Below, in pieces: positions 1,704 through 16,519 of a DNA stretch of 20,520 nt. The position numbers and the translations under genes were made by a program. Numbering within the stretch: position 1 is the first letter of the stretch; every line of letters starts with the position of its first letter. The notes beneath the pieces were generated by a model, which was given only the letters and a program-made list of their open reading frames with translations, did no database searches and had not been told where the DNA came from. Origin of the DNA: Okeania sp. (GTDB lineage: Bacteria; Cyanobacteriota; Cyanobacteriia; Cyanobacteriales; Microcoleaceae); contig NZ_JAYKGW010000046.1 of the NCBI RefSeq assembly GCF_035285525.1, forward strand, positions 1 through 20,520, in the 5' to 3' direction.

Positions 1704-1774
1704 ACAATGGAAAATTATCCATTATCAAAAGGAGTATTAAGAATGCTTATTTCAGAAGAAAAACAGGAACAAAA

Positions 1775-2551
1775 ATGAAAGTAGTTATTCTAGCCGGTGG
1801 TATGGGAACCCGCTTAAGAGAAGAAACCGAATACCGTCCTAAACCATTAGTGGAAGTGGGAGGGCATCCGATTATTTGGCACATAATGAAGCTCTATGCT
1901 CATTATGGTTTTTGGGATTTTATTATTTGCTTGGGTTATAAAGGCAATTTAATTAAGGAGTATTTTCTTAATTACGAGGCCATGAATAATGACTTTACCA
2001 TTAATTTAGGTCGTTCCCAGGAAATTACTTACCATAACCTCCATCAAGAGCAGGACTTTCGCGTGACTCTGGTCAATACTGGTTTGGAAACTATGACTGG
2101 GGGGCGAGTTGCTAAAGTTAAACAATATATTAATGAAGATTTATTTATGGTGACTTATGGTGATGGTCTGGCAGATATTAATATTAAAGATTTGGTAGAA
2201 TTTCATAAAAGTCATGGAAAAATGGCTACTGTCACTACGGTACAACCGCTTTCTCGTTACGGAGTTTTAGATATTGACAAGGAAGCTAGGGTATTGAAGT
2301 TTGGGGAAAAGATTAAAGACGATAAAATAGTGAGCGCTGGTTTTTTTGTGTTTGACCGTCGAGTGTTTGATTATTTATCCGCGGAAAATTGTGTTTTAGA
2401 AAAAGACCCATTAGAAAAGTTGGCAGCAGAAGGTCAACTAATGAGTTATTATCATTCTGGTTTCTTTTATGCGATGGATACTTTTAAGGAATATCAGGAG
2501 TTGAATAAGATGTGGAAGTTGGGTCAAGCACCTTGGAGAATTTGGGAATAA
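1775..2551 (+). CDS. rfbF: Glucose-1-phosphate cytidylyltransferase
   Basis: The N-terminus [57 protein letters not shown] and the 258-aa length are characteristic of RfbF/DdhA. The next gene starts 1 nt after the stop. Confidence 0.9.
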
Positions 2552-2552
2552 T

Positions 2553-3554
2553 ATGCAGGTAAATGATTTTTGGGGCGATCGCTCTGTCTTTATTACTGGC
2601 TGTACTGGTTTACTAGGCAGTTGGATGGTAGCTGAGTTGGTGGAGCGGGGGGCAAAAGTTACTGGTTTGGTACGGGACTTGGTGCCGAAATCTCGCCTTT
2701 ATACTGACGATCGGGCGGATAAAATTAATATAGTCCGAGGTGGTGTTGAGGATTTGGATGTTATTGAAAGGGCGATCGCTGAATATGAAGTAGATACGGT
2801 TTTTCATCTGGCGGCCCAAACCATTGTGGGAGTGGCCAATAAACATCCTTTGGGGACTTTTGAAGCTAATATTAAAGGAACTTGGAATGTATTGGAAGCT
2901 TGTCGTCGGGTGGGGGGTGTGAGTCGCATTGTTATTGCCTCTAGCGACAAAGCTTATGGAGACCAGGAGGTTTTGCCCTACAATGAAACTACCCCGTTAC
3001 AAGGAGAACATCCCTACGACGTTTCTAAAAGTTGTGCAGATTTAATTAGTCGTACTTATTATGTTTCTTATGGGTTGCCCATCTGTATTACCCGTTGTGG
3101 TAATTTTTACGGTGGGGGAGATTTGAATTTTAATCGCATTGTACCGGATACTATTAGGTCTGCTTTGCGGGATAAACCTGTGACTATTCGTAGCGATGGT
3201 ACTTATATCCGGGATTATTTTTATGTTAAAGATGGAGTTTTGGCTTATTTGCATTTGGCAGAACAAATGGATAGAAAAGAAATTTTAGGGGAAGCTTTTA
3301 ATTTTAGTAATGAGTTACAAATTACGGTATTAGAGTTGGTGCGTAAAATTTTGGTGTTAATGAATAAAACCAATCTAGAACCTGTTATTTTAAATCGGGC
3401 AACTAACGAGATTAAACATCAATATTTATCGGCAGAAAAGGCTCGTAAATTGTTAAAATGGCATCCAGAATATACTTTGGAAAAAGGTTTACAAGAGACA
3501 ATTAAATGGTATGATGGTTTTCTGAATTTAACTGATTTCAACAAATATAAATGA
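2553..3554 (+). CDS. rfbG: CDP-glucose 4,6-dehydratase (extended SDR)
   Basis: The N-terminus has [20 protein letters not shown], following the FW..+.V.ITG.TG..GSW pattern of RfbG. It also has an SSDKAYG serine and a YDVSK YxxxK catalytic motif. It sits immediately downstream of rfbF. Confidence 0.75.
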
Positions 3555-4108
3555 AAATGAAATTAATTGAAACCAAACTGACTGGATGCTATATTATCCA
3601 GCCCAGAGTTTTTCAAGATGAAAGAGGGAGTTTTGTCAAGACTTTTCATCAAGAAACATTTGAAAAATACAAATTAGAAACAAAATATGTTGAGGAAGTT
3701 TATTCTATTTCTCATCAAAATGTTTTAAGAGGTTTACATTTTCAAATACCACCTCACGATCATACTAAACTGGTTTATTGTCTTTTTGGTCGAGTAATTG
3801 ATGCTGTGGTAGATTTACGGGTAGGTTCGCCTACTTACGGACAATACGAAACCTTCGAGTTAAGCCAGGAAAATGCTCATATCTTATATATACCAACTGG
3901 TTTTGCTCATGGTTTCTATGCTACTAGCGAAAAAGCTATTCTGGTTTACAATCTTTCCAGCATTTATGCTCCTAACCACGATCGCGGAGTACGCTGGGAT
4001 TCCGTAGGAATATCTTGGCCTATTGGTGAGACTAACCCTATTATTTCCGAGCGCGATCGCGCATTTTTACCTTTTTCTGAGTTTGAAAGTCCCTTTATTT
4101 ATGAATAA
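3551..4108 (+). CDS. RmlC-like cupin, NDP-4-keto-6-deoxyhexose 3,5- (or mono-) epimerase
   Basis: [42 protein letters not shown] and IPTGFAHGF are RmlC-family hallmarks. The ATG overlaps the upstream stop (ATGA at 3551-3554), which implies translational coupling. Confidence 0.85.
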
Positions 4109-4109
4109 T

Positions 4110-4178
4110 AAATTGCTTTCAGAAACCCGGTTTAAATTGCTTTCAGAAACCCGGTTTCTCCAAGAAACCGGGTTTCTA
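4110..4178. repeat. Three copies of the GAAACCCGGTTTC palindromic element, including a 24-nt direct duplication AAATTGCTTTCAGAAACCCGGTTT x2
   Basis: Read directly. The duplicated units lie at 4110-4133 and 4134-4157, and a third palindrome at 4163-4178. The cluster sits in the 95-nt gap inside the sugar operon. Confidence 0.85.
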
Positions 4179-4203
4179 ACCACGTTATATTAATCATAAA
4201 TTA

Positions 4204-5118
4204 ATGAAAAAAACGGTTTTAGTTACAGGTGCAACAGGTTTCATCGGTAGTCAGTTAGTTAAACACCTACTTAAATATAATTATCAAGTTATTATTCTCA
4301 AGCGTAGTTTTTCTGACACCAAAAAGATTGAGGATTGCTTGTCAGAGATAACTGCTTATGACATAGATAAATGCAGCATAGAAAAACCCTTTCAAGACTT
4401 TGGAAAAATTGATGCAGTAGTTCACACAGCAACAGCTACTGGCCGCCGTCAAGAGAGTCTAATAGAAATATTTGAAACTAATACTGCATTTCCTTTAAAA
4501 TTGTTAAATGCAGCTAAACATTTCCAGACCAAAACTTTTATTAACACCGATACTTATGTAAATAAAATCAATCTTCCCTATCAAGAATTAGGGAGTTATT
4601 CTCTTTCTAAAAAGCATTTCCAACAGTGGGGAAAACAAATTGCTCTAGCTCATCAGATCGAGTTTTTTAATGTTAGATTAGAATACGTTTTTGGTGTAGC
4701 AGATTATCCTAACAAACTCATACCATTAGTAATTAAAAAAATTTTAAGCAATGCCTCTGAGGTAGAACTTACTTCAGGGGAACAGCAACGAGATTTTATT
4801 CATGTTGAGGATGTAGTTTCGGCCTATTATTTACTGTTGGAAAAAGAATCCGAACCGTCACAATATTATCAAGAATATGAAGTAGGAATGGGTAAAGCAA
4901 TTTCTTTGCGACAACTTATAGAAATGCTGAAAGAGCTTACAGAAGTTCAAACAGAATTAAAATTTGGAGCTTTACCTCAACGTTCAGGTGAAATTATGTT
5001 TTCTCAAGCTGATACTAAAGCTATGAAAAAAATTGGTTGGTATCCTGCTAAAAGTTTAAAAGAACGTTTAATGCAAACCATTGAAGGCGAAAAAACGCTA
5101 AAAGAGCAAGCAAGCTGA
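4204..5118 (+). CDS. NAD(P)-dependent SDR epimerase/reductase, probable NDP-4-ketohexose reductase
   Basis: A Rossmann motif VLVTGATGFIGSQLV and a YSLSK YxxxK motif are present. The 304-aa size and operon context fit the terminal 4-ketoreductase. Specificity cannot be read from the sequence. Confidence 0.7.
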   Translation: MKKTVLVTGATGFIGSQLVKHLLKYNYQVIILKRSFSDTKKIEDCLSEITAYDIDKCSIEKPFQDFGKIDAVVHTATATGRRQESLIEIFETNTAFPLKLLNAAKHFQTKTFINTDTYVNKINLPYQELGSYSLSKKHFQQWGKQIALAHQIEFFNVRLEYVFGVADYPNKLIPLVIKKILSNASEVELTSGEQQRDFIHVEDVVSAYYLLLEKESEPSQYYQEYEVGMGKAISLRQLIEMLKELTEVQTELKFGALPQRSGEIMFSQADTKAMKKIGWYPAKSLKERLMQTIEGEKTLKEQAS

Positions 5119-5186
5119 AGAAATTGCTATTTTTTACCAAATTACTTGTAAAATACTACCATAGTCCGATTTATTGAAAAAAACAA

Positions 5187-6503
5187 ATGACTCAATCAAC
5201 TTCTTACTCTAGAGAAATTACTAAATGCCGAGTTTGTGGCAACGAAAAACTTACCCCAGTTTTAAGTCTGGGGAGTCAACCCCTGAGCGGAGTTTTTCCA
5301 TCCGCTGACTCTCCCGATCCATCCACTTCTCCTTTAGATTTAGTAATTTGTGATGGTGATGAATCTGTCTGTCGAACCCTGCAACTCCAACACAGTGCTA
5401 ATGTATCGGAAATGTATGGTACTACCTACGGTTATCGTTCCTCAACCAGTCGGACAATGCGCAGTCACCTACAAGGTATTGTTACAGAAGTTTTGGAAAT
5501 GGTACAACCTAATCCTGGGGATTTGGTTTTAGACATTGGTTGCAATGATGGTACTTTGCTGAACTTTTATCGAGAACGCAACCTAACTCGCATAGGTATG
5601 GATCCCTCAAGTAAAAAATTCGCAGATAATTTTGATACAGATATTCAAGTTATCTATGATTTCTTTTCTGCTGATGGGGTGCGGGAAATGGTGGGCGATC
5701 GCAAATGTAAAATCGTTACTTCCATAGCCATGTTTTATGACTTGGAAGACCCAATAGACTTTATGAAGCAAATTCATTCTGTTTTAGCTCCAGATGGGGT
5801 TTGGGCGTTTGAACTTTCCTATATGCCGCTGATGTTGACCAATCTGACTTACGACCAGATTTGCCACGAACACTTAACTTACCTGGGTTTGCAGCAGATT
5901 CAATGGATGGCCGAACGGGCTGGCCTCAAAATACTTGATGTCAGTTTGAATTTTGTTAATGGTGGGAGTTTTCGGATTATAGCTGCCCACAAGGATAGTG
6001 CCATGAAGCCTAACTATGAGGTTATCAAAAAACTTCTTGATGCTGAAGCGCCCCTCGCAACAATGGCTCCTTTTGACCGATTCCGCAATCGGATTATTCA
6101 ACATCGCGATGAGGTAAGAGCATTTTTTGATACGATGCGTTCCTCTGGTAAGAAAGTTTATGGGTATGGAGCTTCGACTAAAGGAAATATTGTTTTGAAC
6201 TATTGTGGCATTACCCCAGAGGATTTAGTAGCTATTAGCGACCTGCAACCTCAAAAAGATGGTTTGCTTACGCCAGGAAGTCGTATTCCCATTATAACTC
6301 ACGAAAAGTTAAGGGAAGCACATCCAGATTATGCTATGGTATTGATTTGGCATTTGCGTCGGGAAGTGATTGAGGATGAGATTAACTACTTAGAAAAAGG
6401 AGGGAAGTTGGTATTCGATTTACCGCGTCCCCATACAGTTAATTTTGAAAACTATCAGCATTATTTGAATGCTTCCTTTGAAGACCTAGCATTTTCTTTG
6501 TAA
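5187..6503 (+). CDS. SAM-dependent NDP-hexose C-methyltransferase (TylC3/EvaC-type)
   Basis: It has an N-terminal Zn-ribbon CRVCGN...LSLGSQPLSG, a SAM motif VLDIGCNDGTLL, and a long C-terminal domain with GYGASTKGN. This three-part layout and the ~440-aa size match sugar 3-C-methyltransferases as I recall them. Confidence 0.75.
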   Translation: MTQSTSYSREITKCRVCGNEKLTPVLSLGSQPLSGVFPSADSPDPSTSPLDLVICDGDESVCRTLQLQHSANVSEMYGTTYGYRSSTSRTMRSHLQGIVTEVLEMVQPNPGDLVLDIGCNDGTLLNFYRERNLTRIGMDPSSKKFADNFDTDIQVIYDFFSADGVREMVGDRKCKIVTSIAMFYDLEDPIDFMKQIHSVLAPDGVWAFELSYMPLMLTNLTYDQICHEHLTYLGLQQIQWMAERAGLKILDVSLNFVNGGSFRIIAAHKDSAMKPNYEVIKKLLDAEAPLATMAPFDRFRNRIIQHRDEVRAFFDTMRSSGKKVYGYGASTKGNIVLNYCGITPEDLVAISDLQPQKDGLLTPGSRIPIITHEKLREAHPDYAMVLIWHLRREVIEDEINYLEKGGKLVFDLPRPHTVNFENYQHYLNASFEDLAFSL

Positions 6504-6508
6504 AACAT

Positions 6509-6550
6509 AACAGCAGCACCTATTTGTTACAAATAAGTGCTGCTGTTTTA
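6509..6550 (+). terminator. Probable intrinsic terminator of the sugar operon
   Basis: AACAGCAGCAC (6509-6519) pairs with GTGCTGCTGTT (6537-6547). The stem extends inward through TATTTG/CAAATA, and a T-run follows at 6545-6549. It starts 6 nt after the stop codon. Confidence 0.5.
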
Positions 6551-6577
6551 CAGCGGTTTTCATTTGAATAAACCACA

Positions 6578-6605
6578 GTAGGGACGTTGCATGCAACGTC
6601 CCTAC
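6578..6605. repeat. Perfect 28-bp palindrome GTAGGGACGTTGCATGCAACGTCCCTAC (small dispersed repeat)
   Basis: Perfect self-complementarity was checked by eye. A near-identical copy lies inside a CDS at 16011-16038, and a sibling with the same GTAGGG...CCCTAC ends lies at 17492-17519. Confidence 0.9.
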
Positions 6606-6660
6606 AGAATTATCGCTTTTTTCGTGTGGCTCATTGACCTGAAAGCGGCTGTATGCCCTT

Positions 6661-6683
6661 AGAACAGACATCTTGTCTGTTCT
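6661..6683 (-). terminator. 10-bp hairpin just downstream of the TPR-GT61 gene (possible terminator)
   Basis: AGAACAGACA-TCT-TGTCTGTTCT lies 11 nt beyond the stop at 6694. No clear U-tract follows on the minus strand. Confidence 0.3.
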
Positions 6684-6693
6684 GTGTAGGTTT

Positions 6694-9600
6694 TCATTCT
6701 GCCTCAAGTATTGTAGTAATAACTTTTTTCAACTTATTTATGTTCGTTTCCCAGCCATTAGCTGTTTTTTTACCTAATAGCAAGTACAAACTGTATTCAC
6801 TCCAAGCACACATCCTATAATTGTATGTACACGGAGAAGTACCCGGAGGCATTATTACGACAATAGTTGTATTTGGATGACACATAACCGAGTTGAGAAT
6901 ACCTGCACCGTGGGGGCTAACTACAAAAGAAGCATAATTCATTAGCATGGCTTTTTCTTCAAAACTCAACCTTTCGGCATAAACAATCGAAAATCCTAAG
7001 CTCGCCATCAACTCCTCTACTTCTGCTTCATTAGTCATTGCTCTGTTAGTGGAATGTTTTCTTGAAATATACACATAACGAGCGCGATATTCTGAGGGTA
7101 TATCGGAACGCTTTGCTACGATTGACTCTCTCAATTTTCTGTAAATATCAATTATCTCTGCATTGTGTTGATAGCAGCTAATTATGAAATATTTAAACTT
7201 CTGCTCTTGTTTCACCAAAATTCTCTCTCTTGGTATGTTCAAAGCATTAAAGATTTCCCAGTGGCTATCCATAATGTGGGGAACAAATATTTTACACGAT
7301 AAATTCAGTTTTTGATACAGAATCAAACTAGGAATTTGGTCGAACAGTAAATGACCGTAGTTCTGGTATGCACCCCAAATTCCCCAAACATTAGGTATGC
7401 CGAAAACTACTTCATCCTCGTAATAACTATCTAGTTTTTTTTGACTTATAGCAATTTCCTCAAAAAAGCCTCTAGAATCGAAAACTTTCATACTGTCTTT
7501 AGAACAAGCCTTGCTATAAATAATGTTTTGTTCAGAGTTTTCAGCCTTCTCACTGTCTAGTTCATGAATAAACTCTTGAGATACTAAACTGCAATAGTAA
7601 AACCAAGGTAGAATATATCCCTCAGAAATACCATAAGGAGGCTCGCAAATAAAATCCTTAAATATCTCTATAGTTTGCCTGCTTCTCAGCTTAAGCCAAC
7701 TTGCCAATTTCCCAACTTTAGCTGGAAAATACTCCTTTTCTTCATCCATTAACCCGGGTAAATATTTTACTGTAGCTTCTGTCTGAAATTTAGGCATCCA
7801 TTCGTCAGCACCTATTACATAGCGTGCTGACGATGATAAGCCCTCAAAACGCAACTCATTAATTAATGACAGTGGAATTTCTGTGCGAAGCAGCTTAACC
7901 TTTCTCCACTCGCTGCTATTTAATCTCTGGGATTCTTTTTCCAGGAGTTGAATAGCCATATTGAAGTGTTTTAAGACTAACAAATCCTGCTCTTTACAAT
8001 CCTCTTGAGTAGCAATAACTTGCGAAAACAATTCTTTTAATATCTTTAACTTCGGCAGCAACGAAGAAGCATCTTTAGCTACGGGTGCAGGATAATTCCT
8101 TCGATATAATAATATATTATCTGTTAACTGAGCTAAAGAAACAACATCCTTAGCACTATTCGGTTGTTTTGTAACCAGTCGGTCAAGTAACAAACCTAAT
8201 TCCTGAATAGAAGTTAAACCTGTCCCCAGTAGTTTAACCTCTGGATATAAACCCCGCTGCTGATGGAAACTTAAAATTTGCTCGTACTTCGCCTCAGCTT
8301 CAGTTTCGCGACCTAAATATTTTAATTCCGTTGCCGCCAGTATATAGGCATCAATAGCTTTTTGAGGATCGTAAGACTCGCTCGCTCGCTCAAACCTCTC
8401 CAAAGCTAACTCTCTATTTCCTTGTTGGCTTGCTAAAATTCCCCCTTGGAGCAAAACCGTTAAATTATTAGGATTTCTCTGCAAAGCCTCTCGGTATTTT
8501 GCCTCAGCCTCAACAAAACGCCCCATGGCCATCAATTCTTTAGCAGCCTCACAGTAGGCCGGAATATGCCCAGGGAACTTTTCCATAATTTGTTCAAACC
8601 TTTGCCAAGCAAATTTCCGATTTCCCAAATGCCTCGCTAGAGTAGCACTTTTGGACAATCCTTCATGGCGATGGGGATATTTAGCAATAACTTTTTTCCA
8701 CCAAGTTTCTGCTTCTTCATAACGAGACAGAATAGCTAGTGCATCCCCTTTTGGCAAATAAAAATTAAAATAGTTGGGAAACTTTTCTAAAGCATTTTCC
8801 CACCGTTGTAATGCCAACTCCCAATCTGGCAAGCTCTGAGCTACTCTAGCATAACCCTCATAACCATGATGCTGATTTGGATACTTTTCTATTAACTGTT
8901 GAAAAACCCCCTCTGCTTCTTTAAACCGAGATAAATTGATTAAAGCATTGCCTTTTCCAATTTGAAACCAGATATATTCGGGAAACTTAGCAATACCATC
9001 TGACCACCGCTTTAATGCCAACTCCCAATCAGCTAAATGATGACTTACCTTAGCATAACCCTCATAACCATGATGCTGATTTGGATACTTTTCTATTAAC
9101 TGTTGAAAAAACGCCTCTGCTTCTTTAAACCGAGATAAATTGATTAAAGCACTGCCTTTTTGGTGCTGAAAACTGATATATTGGGGAAACTTAATTGCTG
9201 CCTCCGACCACCGTATTAATGCCAATTCCCAATTACCTAAACTATGACTTACCTTGGCATAACCTTCATAACCATGAGGTTGATTTGGATACTTTTCTAT
9301 TAACTGTTGAAAAACCACTTCTGCTTCTTTAAATCTGCTTAAAGTAATTAAATTATTGCCACAATTACGATAAATAGACATCGGTTGTTGAGGGTTGAGA
9401 AATAATGCTTGTTGGTAAAACTCAACAGCTTCTTTTATCTTTCCTTCCTTATTTAACTTATCCCCATTATCCACAAAATTTTTAGCAATATCTGTTTGCA
9501 ACCAAGAGATTTTTTGAGTTGCCTTGAAGTGATTTGGATTAAGAGAAAGCACTTTTTGCCAAGTTGTTAATTCCTGCGCAAAATCCGATTTGGCTTCATA

Positions 9601-9942
9601 AACTAAAGCTAATGTTTGATAATAAATTGCCAAATTTGGTTCGAGAGAAATAGCTTTTTTTGAGGAATTAATTGCCCGATCTAATTCTCCTTGTTTGATT
9701 AATGCTTCGGCTAAACTATTATACAAGTTGGCAGAATTAGGATTAAGTTTAATAGCCTGTTGATATTGGGCTACGGCATCAGACCATTTTTGTTGTTGGA
9801 CAAACACTTGCCCCAAATAATAGTAATTCCAGGCAAAATTAGGTTTTTGATCTATGAGTTTCTGATATTCTTGGCACGCATCATCCAATCTACCCGCTTT
9901 TAATAGTTGATTAGCAGTTTTGAGAGAACTGGTATAAGCCAT
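6694..9942 (-). CDS. TPR-repeat protein fused to a C-terminal GT61/DUF563-type glycosyltransferase
   Basis: About 560 aa of TPR units at the N-terminus include three near-identical 68-aa double-TPR modules. The C-terminal ~300 aa carry YQNYGHLLFDQIPSL, RYVYISRK, NEAEVEEL and VVSPHGAGILNSV. These correspond to the NYxHW, YxSR and HGAG(L)xN motifs of DUF563/GT61. I saw no hydrophobic membrane-span-like run. Confidence 0.75.
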   Translation of the reverse strand: MAYTSSLKTANQLLKAGRLDDACQEYQKLIDQKPNFAWNYYYLGQVFVQQQKWSDAVAQYQQAIKLNPNSANLYNSLAEALIKQGELDRAINSSKKAISLEPNLAIYYQTLALVYEAKSDFAQELTTWQKVLSLNPNHFKATQKISWLQTDIAKNFVDNGDKLNKEGKIKEAVEFYQQALFLNPQQPMSIYRNCGNNLITLSRFKEAEVVFQQLIEKYPNQPHGYEGYAKVSHSLGNWELALIRWSEAAIKFPQYISFQHQKGSALINLSRFKEAEAFFQQLIEKYPNQHHGYEGYAKVSHHLADWELALKRWSDGIAKFPEYIWFQIGKGNALINLSRFKEAEGVFQQLIEKYPNQHHGYEGYARVAQSLPDWELALQRWENALEKFPNYFNFYLPKGDALAILSRYEEAETWWKKVIAKYPHRHEGLSKSATLARHLGNRKFAWQRFEQIMEKFPGHIPAYCEAAKELMAMGRFVEAEAKYREALQRNPNNLTVLLQGGILASQQGNRELALERFERASESYDPQKAIDAYILAATELKYLGRETEAEAKYEQILSFHQQRGLYPEVKLLGTGLTSIQELGLLLDRLVTKQPNSAKDVVSLAQLTDNILLYRRNYPAPVAKDASSLLPKLKILKELFSQVIATQEDCKEQDLLVLKHFNMAIQLLEKESQRLNSSEWRKVKLLRTEIPLSLINELRFEGLSSSARYVIGADEWMPKFQTEATVKYLPGLMDEEKEYFPAKVGKLASWLKLRSRQTIEIFKDFICEPPYGISEGYILPWFYYCSLVSQEFIHELDSEKAENSEQNIIYSKACSKDSMKVFDSRGFFEEIAISQKKLDSYYEDEVVFGIPNVWGIWGAYQNYGHLLFDQIPSLILYQKLNLSCKIFVPHIMDSHWEIFNALNIPRERILVKQEQKFKYFIISCYQHNAEIIDIYRKLRESIVAKRSDIPSEYRARYVYISRKHSTNRAMTNEAEVEELMASLGFSIVYAERLSFEEKAMLMNYASFVVSPHGAGILNSVMCHPNTTIVVIMPPGTSPCTYNYRMCAWSEYSLYLLLGKKTANGWETNINKLKKVITTILEAE
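8725..9336 (-). repeat. Three tandem 204-bp near-identical repeats inside the CDS (each is two TPRs, RFKEAE..FQQLIEKYPNQ.HGYEGYAKVSH...ALINLS)
   Basis: The string ATAACC(C/T)TCATAACCATGA recurs at 8851, 9055 and 9259, exactly 204 nt apart. The protein units start at aa 203, 271 and 339. Confidence 0.9.
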
Positions 9943-10097
9943 GAATTTTTTAGAAGTTTGAGTGTAATATTATGTTAGGATAATCACTTATAAGTATACT
10001 TTTTATTTGTAGTCGGGCTAAATCCCTAATTTTAGATAAGTTTTCAGCCTTAATACGAGCTTCAATTATAATAAGTATTTAACCAAATATGATATAA

Positions 10098-10283: not shown

Positions 10284-11243
10284 TCATACAAGTAGCAGAT
10301 TTTCTATTAGCTGACTCAAATCATTTGTATCAACTTGAATGTTACGGCTGTTTGAATTTCTTTCATCCCTCTCGCTAAAATTTCCTACTAAAAATCTGTA
10401 CTCACACCCAACGTGTTTTGCTATTTGGTAAAATAAGCTGCTTATATAACAGGGAGCAAAAATTTCTAAGACCTTTGTTTTCGGATTACAAAAAGCCAGG
10501 TTAGTCAGTCCAGCACCATGGGGTGCAAGGACAAAAGAAGCATTCGGCATTAACTTTACCTGGGAATCAAAGGCTATTTTTTCAAATTCATACGTTATAA
10601 AACCATATTTTTTGAGAATTAATTCAACCTCAGCAGCATTTTCAATTGCTCTCAATCCCCTACTTTTCCTACTTATATAAATACGTTTCTCTTCTTCACT
10701 ATTTTTTTCAATTTTAGCAAGAAAAGAATTACGAAGAAATTCAACCATCCATTGACTGACTTGATGATTTCCCGTTCTTCTTTCCGAAGGGATGCTCAGT
10801 CGCTCGGCTGAAAGCATCATTCCAGGTTCGGCTATAAGCACTTGGGCTTCATTAATGCCAAGAGCAGAAATAACTTTTTGTCCATACTTGGAATTAATCT
10901 TAGGAAAAATTATATAGTCTAATTCTTCTAAGTTTCCAAGTGCTTTGATTCGCGAAACACAATCAATCATCCAATGAAAATAGTTGTTAGTACCTGCAAG
11001 TTGAGATGCTAATACACCTACCGAACCTGATATATGATTCTGAGCTTGAGTAGAAGACTCATCAATCCAAAAATTACAGTCGTCTTCAAATGATATAGAA
11101 CAGCATTCATAAGTATCACAGTAGTGAAAAGGTTCATTCTTGTAATATCCCAGAATTGAGATAGTATTGTCAATATCCTGACTGATGCCGATGGGAGACT
11201 CGTATCCCCAGGAATAGGCATCCGATACAATTTTTCTCTTCAT
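10284..11243 (-). CDS. GT61/DUF563-type glycosyltransferase (stand-alone)
   Basis: NNYFHWMIDCVSRI, RIYISRKSRGLRAIENAAEVE and VLAPHGAGLTNLAFCNPKTKVLEI are the family motifs. It is a paralogue of the C-terminal domain of the 6694-9942 product. Confidence 0.8.
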   Translation of the reverse strand: MKRKIVSDAYSWGYESPIGISQDIDNTISILGYYKNEPFHYCDTYECCSISFEDDCNFWIDESSTQAQNHISGSVGVLASQLAGTNNYFHWMIDCVSRIKALGNLEELDYIIFPKINSKYGQKVISALGINEAQVLIAEPGMMLSAERLSIPSERRTGNHQVSQWMVEFLRNSFLAKIEKNSEEEKRIYISRKSRGLRAIENAAEVELILKKYGFITYEFEKIAFDSQVKLMPNASFVLAPHGAGLTNLAFCNPKTKVLEIFAPCYISSLFYQIAKHVGCEYRFLVGNFSERDERNSNSRNIQVDTNDLSQLIENLLLV

Positions 11244-11336: not shown

Positions 11337-14219
11337 TTATTTAGAAAAGCCAGACATTTTTGCATAAAGAACCTGATAACCAAATAGTTCAACAACCTTA
11401 AACGTTGTTGCTAAGGGAGATATATCTGCCAAAACATAATTAAAAAATGTTTGGTAGTATTCTTGGCGGCATAAGTAAAGTTTATTATTTCCATAGCAGA
11501 AAGGTGCCAAACCCTGACTAGAATTAGAGCCAAAATAAGTAACTACACCCTCCATTACTCCAGGCCAGCGTAGATTAACAAAATCATCGACAATAATAAT
11601 ACCACCATCTGATAGAGTTTCTTGAGCAAGGGCCAAGTCGTTCAGAACATGGTTGACTGTGTTACCACCATCTACACTAAACAATCGTGCATATTTTCCT
11701 TCTGATAAAGTCAAAATTTCACCAGGGGTAAGCAACAGAGAATCAGAACTTAAGATTCTCAACTGCTTTTCGTTGTCTATCCATTGGTTAAAGTTTTTGG
11801 TAAATTGAAGGCTATCTCCTTTACCAGAATTATCAATATTGGCACTTTGATTTTCAAAACAATCAATAGCAATTAAAGGACTTTCAGAATCTACCATCAT
11901 TGCTAAAGCTATAAATAGCCTACCATGATGAACGCCAATTTCACAAACGCTACCAGATAAACTATGAACATTTTGAAAATGAGCCAACATACTTATGGTT
12001 AATAAAGCCCCATCCTCGACCCATCCAGGTACTTTCTTATGTCCGTCCTCGACAACATAAGACTCGTAGGATTTATGGGGCATAGAAGAAATAGCATATT
12101 TTGGGGAAGAATCTGGTATGCTATCAGACTGAATACCAAAATTTTTTGATATATCTTTGGGAGATGAACCTCTAAGTGGTACTGAATTATAATCGATTTC
12201 TTCTAGTCCTAAAGAGTCAAAATCATCTCTCTTTAAAACCAGAGAAAGAAATTCAGCAGTGCGTAAACCTTCTTTCTCCAAACTATAATTTTCAACCGTA
12301 CTTTTTGCATTAGCAAGATGGGTTTGAAAAGAATCAGGTTTAGTTATAAAGCTTTCTAAAGCTTCCACAATTTCTTGTTGATTCAAAGGATTGATAAGCA
12401 AGCAATTATAGTTATGCTTGGCATATTGGGTAATGCCACCTTCCCGCGTCAGAACCGGGAAAACTCCACAGGCCATTGCCTCTAAACCAGGTCTGCCAAA
12501 CCCTTGAAAAGTTGAGCAGTCTAGCAAAATGCTTGACTCATTTAGGGCGCGAGCAACATCTTCCATTCGGGTTAAAAGACCATAATCTTTACAAGGAAAC
12601 GGCAACTTTGTCATATCATAGCCAAAACCATAGAGCGCTAAAATTACATGAGGGTAACGACGATGGATTTCAGCATAGACAGAGATGACCATTTCAAAAT
12701 TACGTCTTTCTGACTGTGGGCGACCCAGGGCAATTATCTGTAGTTTGCGTTCAGTATTAGTGTTGTGGAAATAGTCCAGATTCAGACCTAGAGGGATACG
12801 GTGAACTTTGCCCGGGAACTCCTCCATTTTACACTTTAGCCATCTCGTTTTGACAATTTTATCTGGGATCATATAATAGGTTTGTTCTGCCGCTTTTTGC
12901 AGGTTTTTGTAGTTATCGTTATAAAAGTCAGGTTCATAATCCTGGACGAAATAGCAAAGGCGCAGATTGGCTCGTTTTTTCTGGAGAAGATAAGCAGGAT
13001 AAACCGTACTCCAGTGAGTCGCAACTATCAGGTCACAGTCTGGAAACTCAGCTACCATTTCTTCCATGCTAGAAAATCTAAAAGGATTAAAAAACATAGG
13101 AAATAGTTGTAGTACCTGCTCATCAACTTCCCCATAAGTAGCAATATTAGCATCAAAACCATTAATAATAAGTTGGTTGACAATCTGCAAAACAGATATA
13201 ATGCCACCATACACTTTGAGTGCTGGCAGAATATATAATATTCTTGGGCTGTCATTATTTACTAATGCTTGCCCTTTTGGAGTAATGGGTAGCGGTAGTT
13301 GCTCCGATAGCTTTAGGGCTTCAATTTCTGCACCGACTGACCTCTTGTCAATAGGGTACTTACACGCCTGGGAACTAGCATCCTTAAAGGCCGAATTTCG
13401 GCACAGTAGGTCAGGATACTTTTTTTTGTCCTCAATAACTGCACGTTCCATATAGCTGATTGGATTATGTGAACGCCATTGTTTTTGATAAGCTTCGTAA
13501 TCTTTAGACCACCGTTCCATAAATATCCCTTTGTTGTGCTTCATATTAAAATCGCGACCTGATTCCAAAAAGCTACCCCATCCATGGTGATAAACAAACA
13601 AGGTTTCATCGACAACAACTCGAAGATTACGACTAAGAACTTTCATGCAAAAATCTGCTTCTTCCCAATAACCACGACCATATACTGGGTCAAATCCACC
13701 CAAATCCTGGAATATTTCACGACGCACAGCGAAAAAGAACCCGGAGGCATTGTTTATGTCAGAAAGTCTGTTTTGAGATATCTGCTCTAGCTGTTTTTGT
13801 AGTGAGTGTATATTATGACCAGGAGGAATAGTCCAGCATATTCGAGTCCAGTTTGCCCAATTTGATACAGCCGTTAATACCCCGATTGTAGGATCGGTAT
13901 CAAAGGCATCCGCAACTTTTTCTAAAAATCTTTCAGGAACACAAGCATCAGAGTTAACAAAGACAATATAAGGATTTGTCCCTGTCATGCCACCACGATT
14001 AGCAGAATATAAGTAACCTTTATTATTTTCGTTTACCAGCAATTTTACCTTTGGGCTATTTTTGTTGGCAACTAACTCAAGCTGAGTTCTTACATAGTTA
14101 TTACAGCCGTCATCAACAATATAAAGTTGATAGGGAAGACTTCCAGACTTAAGTATACTATTCAAGCAACTCCGAGCATGGTGGATGGCCTGATAAACAG
14201 GTACTACAATATCGAACAT
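11337..14219 (-). CDS. Trifunctional GT2 - GT4 - class I SAM methyltransferase fusion protein
   Basis: Residues 1-260 have FDIVVPVY..YIVDDGCNN..NKGY..FVNSDA..EEADFC (GT-A, GT2). Residues ~325-660 have PRILYILPALKVYGGIISV...FQGFGRPGLEAMACGVFPVLTREGG (GT-B, GT4). Residues ~735-960 have VPGWV..GSVCEIGVHHGR...FSVDGGNT...LSDGGIIIVDDF (Methyltransf_24-like). The start lies 20 nt downstream of the preceding gene's stop. Confidence 0.75.
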   Translation of the reverse strand: MFDIVVPVYQAIHHARSCLNSILKSGSLPYQLYIVDDGCNNYVRTQLELVANKNSPKVKLLVNENNKGYLYSANRGGMTGTNPYIVFVNSDACVPERFLEKVADAFDTDPTIGVLTAVSNWANWTRICWTIPPGHNIHSLQKQLEQISQNRLSDINNASGFFFAVRREIFQDLGGFDPVYGRGYWEEADFCMKVLSRNLRVVVDETLFVYHHGWGSFLESGRDFNMKHNKGIFMERWSKDYEAYQKQWRSHNPISYMERAVIEDKKKYPDLLCRNSAFKDASSQACKYPIDKRSVGAEIEALKLSEQLPLPITPKGQALVNNDSPRILYILPALKVYGGIISVLQIVNQLIINGFDANIATYGEVDEQVLQLFPMFFNPFRFSSMEEMVAEFPDCDLIVATHWSTVYPAYLLQKKRANLRLCYFVQDYEPDFYNDNYKNLQKAAEQTYYMIPDKIVKTRWLKCKMEEFPGKVHRIPLGLNLDYFHNTNTERKLQIIALGRPQSERRNFEMVISVYAEIHRRYPHVILALYGFGYDMTKLPFPCKDYGLLTRMEDVARALNESSILLDCSTFQGFGRPGLEAMACGVFPVLTREGGITQYAKHNYNCLLINPLNQQEIVEALESFITKPDSFQTHLANAKSTVENYSLEKEGLRTAEFLSLVLKRDDFDSLGLEEIDYNSVPLRGSSPKDISKNFGIQSDSIPDSSPKYAISSMPHKSYESYVVEDGHKKVPGWVEDGALLTISMLAHFQNVHSLSGSVCEIGVHHGRLFIALAMMVDSESPLIAIDCFENQSANIDNSGKGDSLQFTKNFNQWIDNEKQLRILSSDSLLLTPGEILTLSEGKYARLFSVDGGNTVNHVLNDLALAQETLSDGGIIIVDDFVNLRWPGVMEGVVTYFGSNSSQGLAPFCYGNNKLYLCRQEYYQTFFNYVLADISPLATTFKVVELFGYQVLYAKMSGFSK

Positions 14220-14239: not shown

Positions 14240-16519
14240 TTAGAGGTTAGATACTTTTTTATAGAGATTTATGTACCGATCGGCTATTGTCGTAACTGCA
14301 TGTTTTTCACAGAAAACTCGACACATATATTTGTAGTGATCGGGATAAGGGGATAGCATTACGCTTTTGATTGCATCTAAAAGTGAATCTCGCTCTCTAT
14401 GTTTATACAAAAATCCTGTGTTATCTTGTTCTACATACTCTCTAAGTAAACCAATGTCTGGAACAATTACAGGAGTTTGATAAGATATTGACAAAATCAC
14501 TGAACTAGAAACCCATATATCCTGAAATGAGAAGATAGAGGCATCCAATGAAGAAATCCAAGCTGACATCTCATCGAAGGGAATTTTTCCTGGTTGGAGT
14601 AAAACATTATTTGGCAGATTAGCCTTTAACTTATCAACATAAGTCTGCGATCCTGGATTCCCAGCAATGATTAACTTTGGTGTAGGCTTTTCGTCTGTCA
14701 ACTTTGCAAAAGTTTCTATCTGAAATTCTAAGCCTTTGTAAGGCTTAATCTCTCCAATGCTACCAAATAAGAAACCATCAGTCTCAAGTCCCAGACGACG
14801 GCGTGCTCCAGTTTTTGGTAATAAGTCCCCATAAACCAAATCGAAAGCAGGATGGGGAATTACAGTAATTTTATCAGGAGGACATACCGAAGAGAGTATT
14901 TTCTTTGCCCCATAACCCAAAACAATCACTCGATCGACTATATCTAGAACCTTTTGTTGGAGTTCAATATCGACAGATGCAAACTGGCGATCGTGAGGAA
15001 GAGGGTTATGTTTAGTCCAGACAATCTTACCACCCTCTTTTTTGATATTTCCTAGGAAGTCAAGCAATGACTTAGCACGTTGACGTATGCTTGATTCTGC
15101 CTTATCACCAGGGTGATAGAGAGGATCGAGCTGATGAAAATGGATAACAGTAGGTTTCGGCATTGCCAGACAGGATTTGATGACATCATCTCGGTTCGTA
15201 GTGAAACGAAAATTAATGTCAGAGTGCTTCATAACTTCTGTGGGGATTATCGTGTAAAAAGGATTGCGAGTTTTTTCTGGCGTAAACTGTAAAACATTAA
15301 CAGTAACAACCCTAGAATTATTTTTACTAGAAATAGAAACTCTTGGCCATTCTTTATTATGAGTGTCTGGGTTCAGAGCGATCGCCTTCCCATAAACCTC
15401 AACCGCCTCTTCCTTTTTCCCCAACTCCTTCAACACATCTCCCAACTGCTGCCAAACCACAGCGGACTTAGGATACAACTCCACAGACTTCCTTAACTCA
15501 ATCTCCGCTTCACTCCAATATCCCAACCGCATCAAAGCATACCCCAACTGATACCTCACCACGGCAGACTTCGGATTAACCTCTAGCACTAACCGATACT
15601 CAACCACTGCTTCTTCCCATCTTCCCAACTGCGTATGAGCATACCCCAAATCATGCCTTACCTCGGCTTTCTCAAAACCCAAATCAATAGCCTTTTTATA
15701 CTCACCAACTGCCTCTGACCATCTACCCAACTGCCCTAAAGCCTGACCTAAACCAAAGAATACTTCACCAGAAACAATTGACAAAACCACCACACTATGG
15801 TAAGTATCTACCGCTTCTGACCACCGTCCCAACTTACCCAAAGCTTTGGCCAAACCAACACCACAGTCTACCCTACTCGAATCAATATCCCAACTCTGCT
15901 GATAAAACTCCACTGCCTCCGACCATTGTTGTTGTCCTGACTTAGCTTCTGCCCAATAATAATAAATATCTGGTAAGTAGGGAGTAGGGGGTAGGGAATA
16001 GGAAGTAGGGGGTAGGGACGTTGCATGCAATGTCCCTACAGGATTAGGGTGCAACGTCCCTACAGGATTAGGGTGCAATGTCCCTACAGGATTAGGGTGA
16101 GGAGATTGAGAATCTAAAGAAAACTGAATCATTTGATCAAGACAGTCCTCTACCTCTGACCATTTTCCCAACTTCAGCAACGCACTGGCCAAATCTAGAT
16201 AAAAATTACACACATCTTTTCTTATTTCTAGCGCTCGGCGAAAATAATCTACGGCCTCGGTCAATTGGCCTTGCTTGCTCAACATTCTCCCCAAATAATT
16301 TAAAAGCAAAGGATTCTGGGGATTTATGGCCACTGCTTGACGTAAAGCAGCGATCGCCTCATCTATGCGTCCCACCTGTTCCAGCACTTTGGCCAAATTT
16401 TCGTAAGAGCAAGTAAACTGAGGATTTGCTTGTATGGACTTTTGATAACAAGCGATCGCTTCCCCTAGTTTTCCTTCTTGAAAAAGTTGATTTCCTCTAG
16501 CAAAAGCGGTAACACCCAT
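14240..16519 (-). CDS. TPR-repeat protein fused to a C-terminal GT-B fold (GT4/GT1-like) glycosyltransferase
   Basis: About 10 TPR units (LG(R/K)WSEAV pattern) in the N-terminal ~390 aa are interrupted by a repeat-derived insert. The C-terminal ~360 aa have HFHQLDPLY.., WTKHN.., GSIGEIKPYKG.., and a distal D/E-rich nucleotide-sugar lobe. The family call is the weaker part of this assignment. Confidence 0.65.
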   Translation of the reverse strand: MGVTAFARGNQLFQEGKLGEAIACYQKSIQANPQFTCSYENLAKVLEQVGRIDEAIAALRQAVAINPQNPLLLNYLGRMLSKQGQLTEAVDYFRRALEIRKDVCNFYLDLASALLKLGKWSEVEDCLDQMIQFSLDSQSPHPNPVGTLHPNPVGTLHPNPVGTLHATSLPPTSYSLPPTPYLPDIYYYWAEAKSGQQQWSEAVEFYQQSWDIDSSRVDCGVGLAKALGKLGRWSEAVDTYHSVVVLSIVSGEVFFGLGQALGQLGRWSEAVGEYKKAIDLGFEKAEVRHDLGYAHTQLGRWEEAVVEYRLVLEVNPKSAVVRYQLGYALMRLGYWSEAEIELRKSVELYPKSAVVWQQLGDVLKELGKKEEAVEVYGKAIALNPDTHNKEWPRVSISSKNNSRVVTVNVLQFTPEKTRNPFYTIIPTEVMKHSDINFRFTTNRDDVIKSCLAMPKPTVIHFHQLDPLYHPGDKAESSIRQRAKSLLDFLGNIKKEGGKIVWTKHNPLPHDRQFASVDIELQQKVLDIVDRVIVLGYGAKKILSSVCPPDKITVIPHPAFDLVYGDLLPKTGARRRLGLETDGFLFGSIGEIKPYKGLEFQIETFAKLTDEKPTPKLIIAGNPGSQTYVDKLKANLPNNVLLQPGKIPFDEMSAWISSLDASIFSFQDIWVSSSVILSISYQTPVIVPDIGLLREYVEQDNTGFLYKHRERDSLLDAIKSVMLSPYPDHYKYMCRVFCEKHAVTTIADRYINLYKKVSNL
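15976..16102. repeat. Composite repeat inside the CDS: six heptamers (GTAGGGR), a 28-bp palindrome, and three 24-bp tandem units
   Basis: The heptamers span 15976-16017 (42 nt). The palindrome GTAGGGACGTTGCATGCAATGTCCCTAC lies at 16011-16038. GTCCCTACAGGATTAGGGTGCAAY x3 spans 16031-16102. The translation is SPHPNPVGTLHPNPVGTLHPNPVGTLHATSLPPTSYSLPPTPYLP. Confidence 0.9.

Follow-up and report, generated by a model that had tools for sequence, protein, structure and literature searches.

In the biosynthesis of dTDP-L-mycarose, TylC3/EryBIII is the C-3 methyltransferase and TylK/EryBVII is the 5-epimerase. The noviose pathway (NovV/T/W/U/S), which belongs to an actinomycete antibiotic cluster, uses the dTDP carrier and methylation at C-5, and the C-methyltransferase family also contains C-5 methyltransferases of the NovU type. 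Vinelose of Azotobacter vinelandii is reportedly a CDP-linked 6-deoxy-3-C-methyl-2-O-methyl-L-talose. CDP-sugar pathways also include those of the CDP-3,6-dideoxyhexoses (RfbF, RfbG, RfbH/E1, RfbI/E3 and RfbS/RfbJ) and of CDP-6-deoxy-D-gulose in Yersinia enterocolitica O:8 (DdhA, DdhB, WbcA and WbcB). Virenose of Coxiella is 6-deoxy-3-C-methyl-D-gulose (PMC3539893), and a route via GDP or dTDP involving CBU_0691 was proposed for it (PMC3539893, PMC3204966). Genes SMb21416-21418 on pSymB of the model organism Sinorhizobium meliloti have already been annotated as ddhA-ddhB-'NDP-hexose 3-C-methyltransferase' (PMC4053727); no product of these genes was reported in the literature searched.

The 20.5-kb stretch of DNA analyzed here (the window), from the marine filamentous cyanobacterium Okeania sp., contains five intact, closely packed ORFs on the plus strand at 1775–6503, exactly where the original prediction had placed an operon (Table 1). 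The intergenic distances are, in order, a 1-nt gap (rfbF/rfbG), a 4-nt overlap (rfbG/epimerase gene), 95 nt and 68 nt. The same five genes, each of identical length, were found in the same order in Okeania sp. SIO3B5. The block at 1759–6503 showed 92.9% DNA identity with the SIO3B5 contig over 4747 nt, and the neighboring glycosyltransferase gene was only 77% identical. The equal ORF lengths and the identity of the block indicate that these are genuine conserved genes and not chance ORFs. As judged from the sequence, the block is probably an operon for a CDP-activated methyl-branched 6-deoxyhexose. This had been the original interpretation, and it was supported overall by the family matches and by the link of the methyltransferase clade (clade A, see below) to rfbF/rfbG across phyla.

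Table 1. Features of the Okeania sp. window discussed in the text.
Feature	Position	Strand	Properties
rfbF/ddhA, glucose-1-phosphate cytidylyltransferase	1775..2551	+	258 aa; TIGR02623 equivalog
rfbG-like CDP-glucose 4,6-dehydratase, short subtype	2553..3554	+	333 aa; TIGR02622 best model
RmlC-type NDP-4-keto-6-deoxyhexose epimerase	3551..4108	+	185 aa; TIGR01221
Extended-SDR reductase, CDP-paratose-synthase-like, proposed C-4 ketoreductase	4204..5118	+	304 aa; PF01370
NDP-4-ketohexose C-methyltransferase, clade A	5187..6503	+	438 aa; PF08421+PF13489+PF08484
Putative terminator-like hairpin, 18-bp stem, where the C-methyltransferase and TPR-GT61 genes converge	6509..6547		Consensus scan only
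TPR-repeat/GT61 glycosyltransferase fusion	6694..9942	-	1082 aa; TPR families and PF04577 at 862-1028
Stand-alone GT61 glycosyltransferase	10284..11243	-	319 aa; PF04577 at 1e-29
GT2-GT4 (WsaF-like)-Methyltransf_24 fusion	11337..14219	-	960 aa; Pfam domains
TPR-GT4 fusion	14240..16519	-	759 aa; TPR families and PF00534 at 573-727

The product of the first gene scored 339.1 bits against the glucose-1-phosphate cytidylyltransferase model TIGR02623 (equivalog cut-off 300.25 bits), in agreement with the claimed preference for glucose-1-phosphate. Its orthologue in Trichodesmium erythraeum IMS101 (90% amino acid identity) is also above this cut-off. For the second protein, the top NCBIfam model was TIGR02622 (CDP-glucose 4,6-dehydratase), with a score of 229 bits, which is under the cut-off of 278 bits. 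Its top PDB matches were the CDP-glucose 4,6-dehydratases 1rkx (1.5e-46) and 1wvg (1.7e-44). A YxxxK motif was found in this protein, and its SSDKAYG motif aligned to TSDKCY (Asp-Lys) of 1rkx and 1wvg; the dTDP type has STDEVYG. Orthologues with 54–55% identity are located after rfbF in verrucomicrobial cassettes.

The RmlC-like epimerase and the SDR reductase of the original prediction were recovered as well, with 189 bits against TIGR01221 rmlC (cut-off 156 bits) and a PF01370 match at 3e-38 (extended SDR), respectively. The nearest solved relative of the epimerase was the CDP-sugar epimerase WbcA (5BUV; 5.5e-49, 45% identity), and NovW (2c0z) was also among its PDB relatives (8e-27). Its His, Lys, Tyr and Asp align with the positions that we take to be catalytic in E. 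coli RmlC. The Tyr shared by the window protein and RmlC is replaced by Cys in WbcA. This full RmlC catalytic set fits a 5- or 3,5-epimerase. The reductase contains the motifs GATGFIGS and YSLSK, and its beta-2 is followed by a basic 'IILKRS'; together, these features suggest NADPH as the cofactor. Source records label its homologues (42–55% identity) as CDP-paratose synthetase or 3,6-dideoxyhexose synthase, and those called CDP-paratose synthetase are found beside rfbF in Nostoc and Brevibacillus. In the cyanobacterial loci examined, a reductase of this type always adjoins the C-methyltransferase gene.

The fifth protein has the domain architecture of sugar C-methyltransferases (PF08421 at 14–77, PF13489 at 103–250 and PF08484 at 257–413) and matched MtmC (7e-61), TcaB9 (5e-60) and KijD1 (1e-48). 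These three were also the only whole-length matches to its predicted structure (AF2, pLDDT 89.9) in a Foldseek search of the PDB, with TM values of 0.83–0.86. Thus, the 438-aa enzyme groups with full-length NDP-sugar C-methyltransferases, as proposed, and not with O-, N- or non-sugar methyltransferases. It retains the Cys4 Zn site, and its Y81, E228 and H229 are the conserved equivalents of Y76, E224 and H225 of TcaB9. D185 and C226 stand at the positions of TcaB9 H181 and Y222, and both replacements (His181 to Asp and Tyr222 to Cys) are common to every member of clades A and B. These enzymes may thus handle their substrates differently from the characterized C-3 enzymes.

A bootstrapped NJ tree placed the enzyme in clade A of sugar C-methyltransferases (198/200 bootstraps), which is sister to clade B (194/200); the two clades together are separated from TcaB9, MtmC, the SgcA3-like and the S. 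meliloti enzymes (200/200). The designation 'TylC3/EvaC-type' is correct for the family but fails in the narrow sense, given the separate clade and the two changed pocket residues. Clades A and B are told apart by nine positions, and their gene neighborhoods were compared using non-redundant loci (14 for clade A and 71 for clade B). A rfbF gene was located within 10 kb in 10 of the 14 clade-A loci versus 4 of the 71 clade-B loci (Fisher p = 2.6e-7), whereas Gmd-type genes were found near none of the former and 42 of the latter (p = 3.5e-5). An Azospirillum plasmid enzyme adjoining manC and fcl is an example of clade B. The link of clade A to rfbF/rfbG and of clade B to GDP-mannose dehydratase supports CDP-4-keto-6-deoxyglucose as the substrate of the window enzyme. 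The clade-A cassettes of Verrucomicrobiota consist of rfbF, rfbG, C-methyltransferase and SDR genes without any epimerase gene, which suggests that the methyltransferase may be able to take the RfbG product directly. Cassettes of rfbF, rfbG and methyltransferase genes are common, occurring in Verrucomicrobiota and S. meliloti pSymB, so the statement that such sugars are rare holds for the reported sugars but not for the genes.

Methylation at C-3, as originally proposed, is consistent with the C-methyltransferase family, although this family also holds C-5 enzymes. A noviose-like route with C-5 methylation, an RmlC-type 3-epimerase and C-4 reduction by the SDR would give a CDP-5-C-methyl-6-deoxyhexose (5,5-gem-dimethyl). 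We consider this route unlikely, despite the presence in the window of the same enzyme types as NovV/T/W/U/S and the relationship of the epimerase to NovW. The SgcA3-like enzyme of a C-1027-type enediyne cluster, presumably a C-5 methyltransferase as proposed, belongs to the same family, groups with MtmC and keeps its pocket residues. Since these are the residues of the C-3 enzymes, the tree and the residues do not distinguish C-3 from C-5. However, all family members characterized structurally and kinetically in the PDB are C-3 methyltransferases, and the epimerase-free verrucomicrobial cassettes and the complete RmlC catalytic set also argue against a noviose-like route. It is very doubtful that the genes are neighbors without being parts of a single pathway, or that the carrier is not CDP (e.g., with the methyltransferase serving a dTDP- or GDP-sugar made elsewhere). 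Some clade-A loci (BBD metagenome loci, Baaleninema simplex (GCA_000332355.1) and locus L005) have no rfbF/rfbG nearby, and the dehydratase does not reach the cut-off of its family model. Nevertheless, the association of the clade with rfbF is strong, the whole block is conserved as a unit, RfbF exceeds its equivalog cut-off, and the rfbF, rfbG and epimerase genes appear from their spacing to be translationally coupled.

The claim that neither E1 nor E3 is encoded here was confirmed for the window: all ORFs of at least 80 aa were assigned and none was DegT-like or ferredoxin-reductase-like, and the best tblastn match to a bona fide RfbH had only E = 0.37. If both enzymes were encoded elsewhere in the genome, this local absence would be uninformative and the real product would be a CDP-3,6-dideoxy-C-methyl-hexose, which we regard as quite improbable. 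Such a product would fit the close relative T. erythraeum IMS101, which shares with the window rfbF, the reductase (81%) and the methyltransferase (84%) and carries RfbH/E1 between rfbF and the latter two genes (NF011936, 658 bits; cut-off 423 bits); the reductase and methyltransferase pair may thus also accept 3-deoxy substrates. It would also fit the naming of the reductase family after 3,6-dideoxyhexose synthases and a Nostoc locus that joins this reductase with rfbF, a rfbG-like gene and a DegT-family protein. However, the Trichodesmium E1 sits where the window has rfbG and the epimerase gene and is not added to them. Moreover, the window, SIO3B5 and a tar-biofilm MAG carry a self-sufficient five-gene set, RfbH was not found in the sequence of these loci and their flanks, and no E3-like gene was seen in them or in the Trichodesmium locus.

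Family membership and gene context therefore lead us to prefer the CDP-activated methyl-branched 6-deoxyhexose, for which they suggest the following steps. RfbF would convert CTP and glucose-1-phosphate to CDP-D-glucose, and the RfbG-like SDR would convert this to CDP-4-keto-6-deoxy-D-glucose; both steps are well supported. The clade-A C-methyltransferase would then use SAM to methylate a carbon beside the 4-keto group, most likely C-3 by analogy with TylC3, TcaB9, KijD1 and MtmC. The RmlC-type epimerase would invert C-5 to give an L-series sugar, because C-3 would be quaternary after methylation, and the NADPH-type CDP-paratose-synthase-like SDR would reduce C-4. The predicted product is CDP-6-deoxy-3-C-methyl-L-hexose (talo or manno), with a tentative order of methylation and epimerization. 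A CDP-linked C-methyl-6-deoxyhexose of some kind can be expected with considerable confidence; given such a product, the methyl group is quite likely at C-3, and the L-series is likely.

The product is probably used by the TPR-GT61, GT61, GT2-GT4 and TPR-GT4 proteins to decorate a protein or polysaccharide. The TPR-GT61 protein is a candidate user of the sugar, as its gene is convergent with the methyltransferase gene and is found at the corresponding place in the loci of Okeania, the tar-biofilm MAG and Trichodesmium. The stand-alone GT61 and the TPR-GT4 fusion may be tied to the sugar through their position. The 960-aa fusion contains PF00535 (4–173), PF21374 WsaF_N (383–450), PF00534 (489–630) and PF13578 (759–880); an O-methylating role for it is speculative.

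A comparison with known systems indicated that the late steps of the dTDP-L-mycarose pathway (with a 4-ketoreductase) and MtmC, TcaB9 and KijD1 involve the same three-domain methyltransferase fold, and the logic of methylation beside the 4-keto group, RmlC-type epimerization and 4-reduction is shared (general background and PMC3539893). However, the window enzyme has only 30–31% identity with MtmC, TcaB9 and KijD1, and the locus differs in its predicted CDP carrier, the absence of 2-deoxygenation genes and its placement in a cyanobacterial glycan locus rather than an antibiotic cluster. The noviose pathway corresponds to the window by enzyme type. The putatively GDP-linked clade-B enzymes (43–49% identity) have the same Asp/Cys pocket and a C-methyltransferase gene followed by that of an SDR reductase, but their neighbors are gmd and Gmd-like reductase genes. 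The S. meliloti locus follows the same idea of rfbF, rfbG and C-methyltransferase without E1/E3; its methyltransferase is only 28% identical to that of the window and lies in a different clade, and its pocket retains His181 and Tyr222. The CDP-3,6-dideoxyhexose pathway has RfbF, RfbG-like and RfbS-like enzymes in common with the window, which lacks E1/E3 and adds the C-methyltransferase and the RmlC-type epimerase; Trichodesmium is a hybrid with E1. The Y. enterocolitica O:8 pathway likewise lacks E1/E3 and continues from the dehydratase product with an RmlC-like epimerase and a reductase, but a C-methyltransferase is absent. By sugar class, CDP-vinelose corresponds to the product predicted for the window. 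Thus, the gene set is genuine and conserved and represents a variant of known deoxysugar pathways with a predicted product.

At positions 1775–6503, the five genes of the original prediction were confirmed as five plus-strand ORFs at exactly those coordinates (see the table). The first three genes are translationally coupled, with a gap of 1 nt between ORF1 and ORF2 and an overlap of 4 nt between ORF2 and ORF3; the spacers between ORF3 and ORF4 and between ORF4 and ORF5 are 95 nt and 68 nt long, respectively. A hairpin with an 18-bp stem separates the block from a convergent gene. Comparison with the contig of Okeania sp. SIO3B5 showed a DNA identity of 92.9% over 4747 nt (window positions 1759–6503). 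This contig contains five genes identical in kind and length, and the TPR-GT61 gene convergent with them; for the latter, identity to the window gene is only 77%. The gene order recurs in a tar-biofilm MAG of the Cyanobacteriota. The 95-nt gap includes a perfect 24-bp direct repeat (two copies), and the corresponding gap in the Okeania contig is 53 nt long. Upstream of the five-gene block of Okeania sp. SIO3B5 (locus L092, 2579–6219), Pfam domains resembling a Kdo-synthesis set were found, namely CTP_transf_3 (KdsB-like), SIS+CBS (KdsD-like), DAHP_synth_1 (KdsA-like) and Hydrolase_3 (KdsC-like). The upstream context in the window differs, so the sugar block occupies different neighbourhoods.

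Features of the window and their coordinates
Feature	Position	Strand	Length
ORF1, rfbF, glucose-1-phosphate cytidylyltransferase	1775-2551	+	258 aa
ORF2, rfbG-like, putative CDP-glucose 4,6-dehydratase	2553-3554	+	333 aa
ORF3, RmlC-type epimerase	3551-4108	+	185 aa
ORF4, extended SDR, proposed reductase	4204-5118	+	304 aa
ORF5, sugar C-methyltransferase	5187-6503	+	438 aa
Direct repeat	4109-4157
Hairpin	6509-6547
Convergent glycosyltransferase gene, TPR-GT61	6694-9942	opposite to ORF1-ORF5
Glycosyltransferase gene, GT61		opposite to ORF1-ORF5
Glycosyltransferase gene, GT2 - WsaF-like GT4 - Methyltransf_24 fusion		opposite to ORF1-ORF5
Glycosyltransferase gene, TPR-GT4		opposite to ORF1-ORF5
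ORF without family match	50-643	-
ORF without family match	801-1076	-
smc, 3' part	1080-1508	+
PRC-barrel protein	17712-18773	+
Response regulator fused to GAF domain	18973-20109	-
Heptamer arrays	710-748, 771-797, 15976-16018, 16786-16818, 17068-17082, 18771-18821, 18941-18987
In-frame coding repeats	16026-16099, 19256-19431, 8800-9333

Outside the sugar genes, only the last ~143 codons of smc were found (TIGR02169 positions 1076–1162), with a stop at 1077 closing the frame. The two minus-strand ORFs are located where the rest of smc should be, and this smc may be either a truncated or interrupted gene or a remnant. Heptamer tandem arrays (TCAGTTA, CATTATC, AGTAGGG and others), typical of filamentous cyanobacteria, are scattered over the window. 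Together with the conserved block in Okeania sp. SIO3B5 and in the tar-biofilm MAG, they assign the window to an Okeania-like member of the Microcoleaceae. In-frame repeats include a 24-bp unit (3.1 copies, encoding HPNPVGTL three times) in the TPR-GT4 protein, a 36-bp unit (five copies) in the response-regulator/GAF protein and a 204-bp unit (2.6 copies) in the TPR region of TPR-GT61, where the copy number seems to vary between relatives. The PRC-barrel protein, which has a long acidic low-complexity tail, and the response-regulator protein have no evident tie to the sugar genes.

The ORF1 product scored 339.1 bits against TIGR02623 (equivalog cut-off 300.25), and its residues 1–257 were aligned with model positions 1–255 of 255. 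The best NCBIfam model for ORF2 was that of CDP-glucose 4,6-dehydratase (TIGR02622), with a score of 229.4 bits, below the cut-off of 278.45; the orthologue in verrucomicrobial cassettes, with 217 bits, is likewise under the cut-off. The top solved relatives of ORF2 were the CDP-glucose 4,6-dehydratases 1rkx (1.5e-46) and 1wvg (1.7e-44), a dTDP-glucose dehydratase being next, and a dTDP-type dehydratase or an epimerase was considered as an alternative. The YxxxK motif is present (YDVSK aligned with YSNSK). The ORF2 motif SSDKAYG was aligned with TSDKCY of 1rkx and 1wvg, and the dTDP enzyme 6bi4 has STDEVYG; we take the Asp-Lys pair to mark CDP-type dehydratases and Asp-Glu to mark the dTDP type. 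The pair of rfbF and an rfbG-like gene was also found in Okeania, in the tar-biofilm MAG and in other rfbF–rfbG loci (L007–L009). The alternative was rejected in view of the Asp-Lys motif and of the link to rfbF, which favour the CDP type, and we read ORF2 as a short CDP-glucose 4,6-dehydratase subtype.

ORF3 scored 189 bits against the rmlC model TIGR01221 (PF00908; cut-off 156), and its closest solved relative was 5BUV (WbcA; 5.5e-49). Its RGLHFQ, HTKLV, VYN and HDRG motifs align with the catalytic His, Lys, Tyr and Asp of E. coli RmlC; where both proteins have Tyr, WbcA has Cys. ORF4 is an extended SDR whose PDB matches were weak (1e-18) and mostly 4-epimerases, so that an epimerase was considered. 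JGI/NCBI annotations call its homologues (42–55% identity) CDP-paratose synthetase or 3,6-dideoxyhexose synthase, and these homologues adjoin rfbF in Nostoc and Brevibacillus. The protein contains GATGFIGS and YSLSK motifs, and the basic stretch IILKRS after the second strand (beta-2) was taken as a sign of NADPH use, i.e., of a reductase. This basic residue and the names and contexts of the homologues favour a predicted NADPH-type reductase over an epimerase.

Pfam analysis of ORF5 revealed PF08421 (residues 14–77, 7e-14), the class I SAM domain PF13489 (103–250) and PF08484 (257–413, 1e-45), and the protein matched MtmC, TcaB9 and KijD1 along its entire length (1e-48 to 1e-61). Its AlphaFold model (pLDDT 89.9) gave end-to-end Foldseek matches only to these three enzymes (TM 0.83–0.86), the remaining methyltransferases covering the Rossmann domain alone (TM about 0.3). 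The Zn-binding cysteines C14, C17, C55 and C62, invariant in the clade of the window enzyme (clade A), align with the TcaB9 cysteines, and all four are conserved in every sequence compared. TcaB9 residues Tyr76, His181, Tyr222, Glu224 and His225 have been probed by mutant structures, of which 4e31, 4e2y and 4e2z concern the active-site Tyr76, Glu224 and His225. The latter three correspond to Y81, E228 and H229 of ORF5, which all the sequences compared share. In ORF5, D185 and C226 stand in place of the pocket residues His181 and Tyr222. The first position is Asp in 12/12 sequences of clade A and in 21/21 of the sister clade B, and the second is Cys in 11/12 (one Met) and 21/21, respectively; MtmC, an SgcA3-like enzyme and the S. 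meliloti enzyme retain His and Tyr. The TcaB9 sequence used was that of the H181N mutant (4e2w), so the Asn at 181 in the alignment is a mutation and not wild type. Neither His181 nor Tyr222 of TcaB9 is, as we assume, essential for catalysis, and Asp/Cys would thus mark a sub-type rather than exclusion from the C-methyltransferase family. The original prediction of a TylC3/EvaC-type methyltransferase holds for the sugar C-methyltransferase family, given the domains and fold, but not for a close relationship, the enzyme belonging instead to a distinct sub-type.

At E ≤ 1e-30, the family included 2,505 cluster representatives (clustering at 50% identity); at least 574 matches were found in species-representative genomes. 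Many members are 650–1150 aa long, with the C-methyltransferase (CMT) fused to other domains (P0246, P0253, P0254, P0264 and others). The family placement of METHYLTRANSFERASE was obtained with a neighbour-joining tree of 41 sequences (200 bootstraps). It contained the window enzyme, the enzymes of clade A (12 in total) and clade B (21 in total), MtmC and TcaB9 (sequences taken from PDB alignments), the SgcA3-like enzyme (encoded in a C-1027-type enediyne cluster that a Streptomyces globisporus plasmid carries) and the enzyme of S. meliloti pSymB; these references stand in for TylC3, EvaC, NovU and CBU_0691. The window enzyme was found inside clade A in 198/200 replicates, together with cyanobacterial, verrucomicrobial and elusimicrobial proteins (55–92% identity). 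The large clade B (43–49% identity) was its sister in 194/200 replicates, and both clades together were set apart from all other tree sequences in 200/200. At nine further positions, clades A and B are each fixed for a different residue, and these positions may determine the specificity for the carrier or the sugar. The literature searched yielded no biochemical characterisation of an enzyme from either clade.

The two clades have different neighbours. A rfbF gene was located within 10 kb in 10/14 non-redundant clade-A loci versus 4/71 clade-B loci (Fisher p = 2.6e-7), and genes for Gmd or a Gmd-like SDR adjoined 0/14 versus 42/71 (p = 3.5e-5). A clade-B enzyme on an Azospirillum plasmid is encoded directly after manC, with fcl nearby, and the verrucomicrobial clade-A cassette consists of rfbF-rfbG-CMT-SDR, without an epimerase. 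These clade-specific neighbours are the strongest evidence here for the substrates, which would be the RfbG product CDP-4-keto-6-deoxy-D-glucose for clade A versus GDP-4-keto-6-deoxy-D-mannose for clade B. The CDP-pathway interpretation of the original prediction is thus supported as far as sequence goes and is strengthened by the clade-specific rfbF/rfbG association, but the word "rare" does not suit the gene cassette, which is widespread.

In some genomes, two or three C-methyltransferase types occur at one locus. In a Pseudomonadota MAG (L062), a third kind of rfbF-rfbG-CMT cassette (15912–19047) lies beside a clade-B enzyme with gmd (9869–11248), and locus L014 has a TcaB9-like paralogue (14737–15990) near its clade-A cassette. 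In Nostoc sp. (JBALCY010000004.1, L094), a pilin gene and a gene for TPR-GT41 are directly followed by a CDP-sugar cassette comprising rfbF, an rfbG-like gene and genes for a DegT-family protein, a methyltransferase and two SDRs, one of them RfbS-like; the context hints that pilin may be glycosylated with a deoxysugar of CDP origin.

E1 (RfbH/DdhC) and E3 (RfbI/DdhD) of the CDP-3,6-dideoxyhexose pathway had been predicted to be missing, which is correct for the window: no DegT-family or ferredoxin-reductase-like ORF was found in its 20.5 kb, and a tblastn search of it with the Trichodesmium RfbH gave a best E of only 0.37. Neither enzyme was found in the Okeania contig or in the flanks of the tar-biofilm MAG. 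However, the absence of E1 does not extend to the close relative Trichodesmium erythraeum IMS101 (CP000393.1, 3512037–3532942; locus at 5285–12416). Its locus contains orthologues of rfbF (90% aa identity), the reductase (81%) and the methyltransferase (84%), as well as TPR-GT61. Between rfbF and the reductase, it has genes for RfbH/E1 (658 bits, cut-off 423), a UXS/dehydratase-like SDR and UDP-glucose dehydrogenase (ugd). This E1 module stands in place of rfbG and the epimerase, and the swap predicts a different (3-deoxy?) branched sugar in this relative. Baaleninema simplex and metagenomes of coral black-band disease likewise have the reductase–methyltransferase pair, there with the epimerase and without rfbF/rfbG nearby. 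The pair is kept across the Okeania, Trichodesmium, Baaleninema and black-band-disease loci and is thus the constant core in these cyanobacteria, in which the front end of the pathway is, by gene content, exchangeable.

The metagenome loci L001–L004 (coral black-band-disease and related) contain a second CMT paralogue (416 aa, ~23–25% identical) directly after the clade-A enzyme. These loci and that of Baaleninema simplex (KB235958.1, L095) have sulfotransferase genes nearby, and in all of them an ORF of 527–530 aa without a Pfam match shows translational coupling to the epimerase gene.

The proposed pathway is deduced, at every step, from the protein families, their motifs and the gene context. 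RfbF, as a member of its family, would form CDP-D-glucose, which the RfbG-like SDR, judging by its motif and context, would convert to CDP-4-keto-6-deoxy-D-glucose. The CMT would then form an enolate beside the 4-keto group and transfer the methyl group of SAM, most likely to C-3, with C-5 as the alternative. With methylation at C-3, epimerisation of C-5 by the RmlC-type enzyme (the order of these two steps is provisional) and reduction of C-4 by the SDR with NADPH would give a CDP-6-deoxy-3-C-methyl-L-hexose with either configuration at C-4. The four glycosyltransferases on the opposite strand are likely users of the predicted sugar, and the TPR-GT61 gene stays in its place in each of the four cyanobacterial loci containing it. 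The TPR-fused transferases suggest a protein acceptor, which is speculation, as is the idea that the Methyltransf_24 domain of the GT2-GT4 fusion acts in O-methylation.

The most far-reaching reading, proposed tentatively and at less than even chances, is that clade A is a previously uncharacterised CDP-specific CMT lineage with a remodelled pocket (Asp/Cys for His181/Tyr222) and a GDP-specific sister lineage. In marine cyanobacteria of the Okeania/Trichodesmium type, it would supply a vinelose-like CDP-6-deoxy-3-C-methyl-L-hexose, put by the TPR-fused GT61 on a surface protein or polymer, and the locus would swap modules (rfbG and epimerase versus E1, UXS-like SDR and ugd), diversifying the branched sugar between close relatives. 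If the predicted pathway is right, a CDP-dependent sugar C-methyltransferase would for the first time be assigned from gene to product, and there would be a genetic candidate for a vinelose-type CDP-sugar; ecologically important marine cyanobacteria (Okeania, Trichodesmium) would bear such sugars on their surface. The paired CDP/GDP clades would also offer a natural experiment in nucleotide-carrier recognition by this fold, useful for glycoengineering.

To our knowledge, methyl-branched sugars are found almost only in antibiotics of actinomycetes and in a few LPS structures, and the characterised C-methyltransferases all use dTDP-sugars. The one CDP-linked 6-deoxy-3-C-methyl-L-hexose known to us is the CDP-vinelose of Azotobacter vinelandii, a type of CDP-sugar described in the 1960s. 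Azotobacter was absent from the best 80 loci of the genome scan for CMT homologues, and nothing was found in the literature searched on vinelose or on a C-methyltransferase acting on CDP-4-keto-6-deoxy-D-glucose. Sugars with a 3-C-methyl group have been described as rare, namely 3-C-methyl-D-mannose in H. pylori and evalose in orthosomycins (PMC12961483); virenose in Coxiella is another (PMC3539893). On S. meliloti pSymB, the existing annotation includes a trio of rfbF, rfbG and "3-C-methyltransferase" genes (PMC4053727). No reported product of this trio was found in the literature searched, and its methyltransferase, only 28% identical to the window enzyme, belongs to a different clade. The proposed methylation, epimerisation and reduction mirror the late steps of dTDP-L-mycarose synthesis, in which TylC3 was reported to invert C-3 on methylation (PMC3539893). 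A CDP pathway of Y. enterocolitica O:8 (WbcA) includes an RmlC-like epimerase and a reductase without E1/E3. Each building block of the window pathway belongs to a known family, and the predicted pathway is an extension of well-understood deoxysugar logic rather than a new kind of system.
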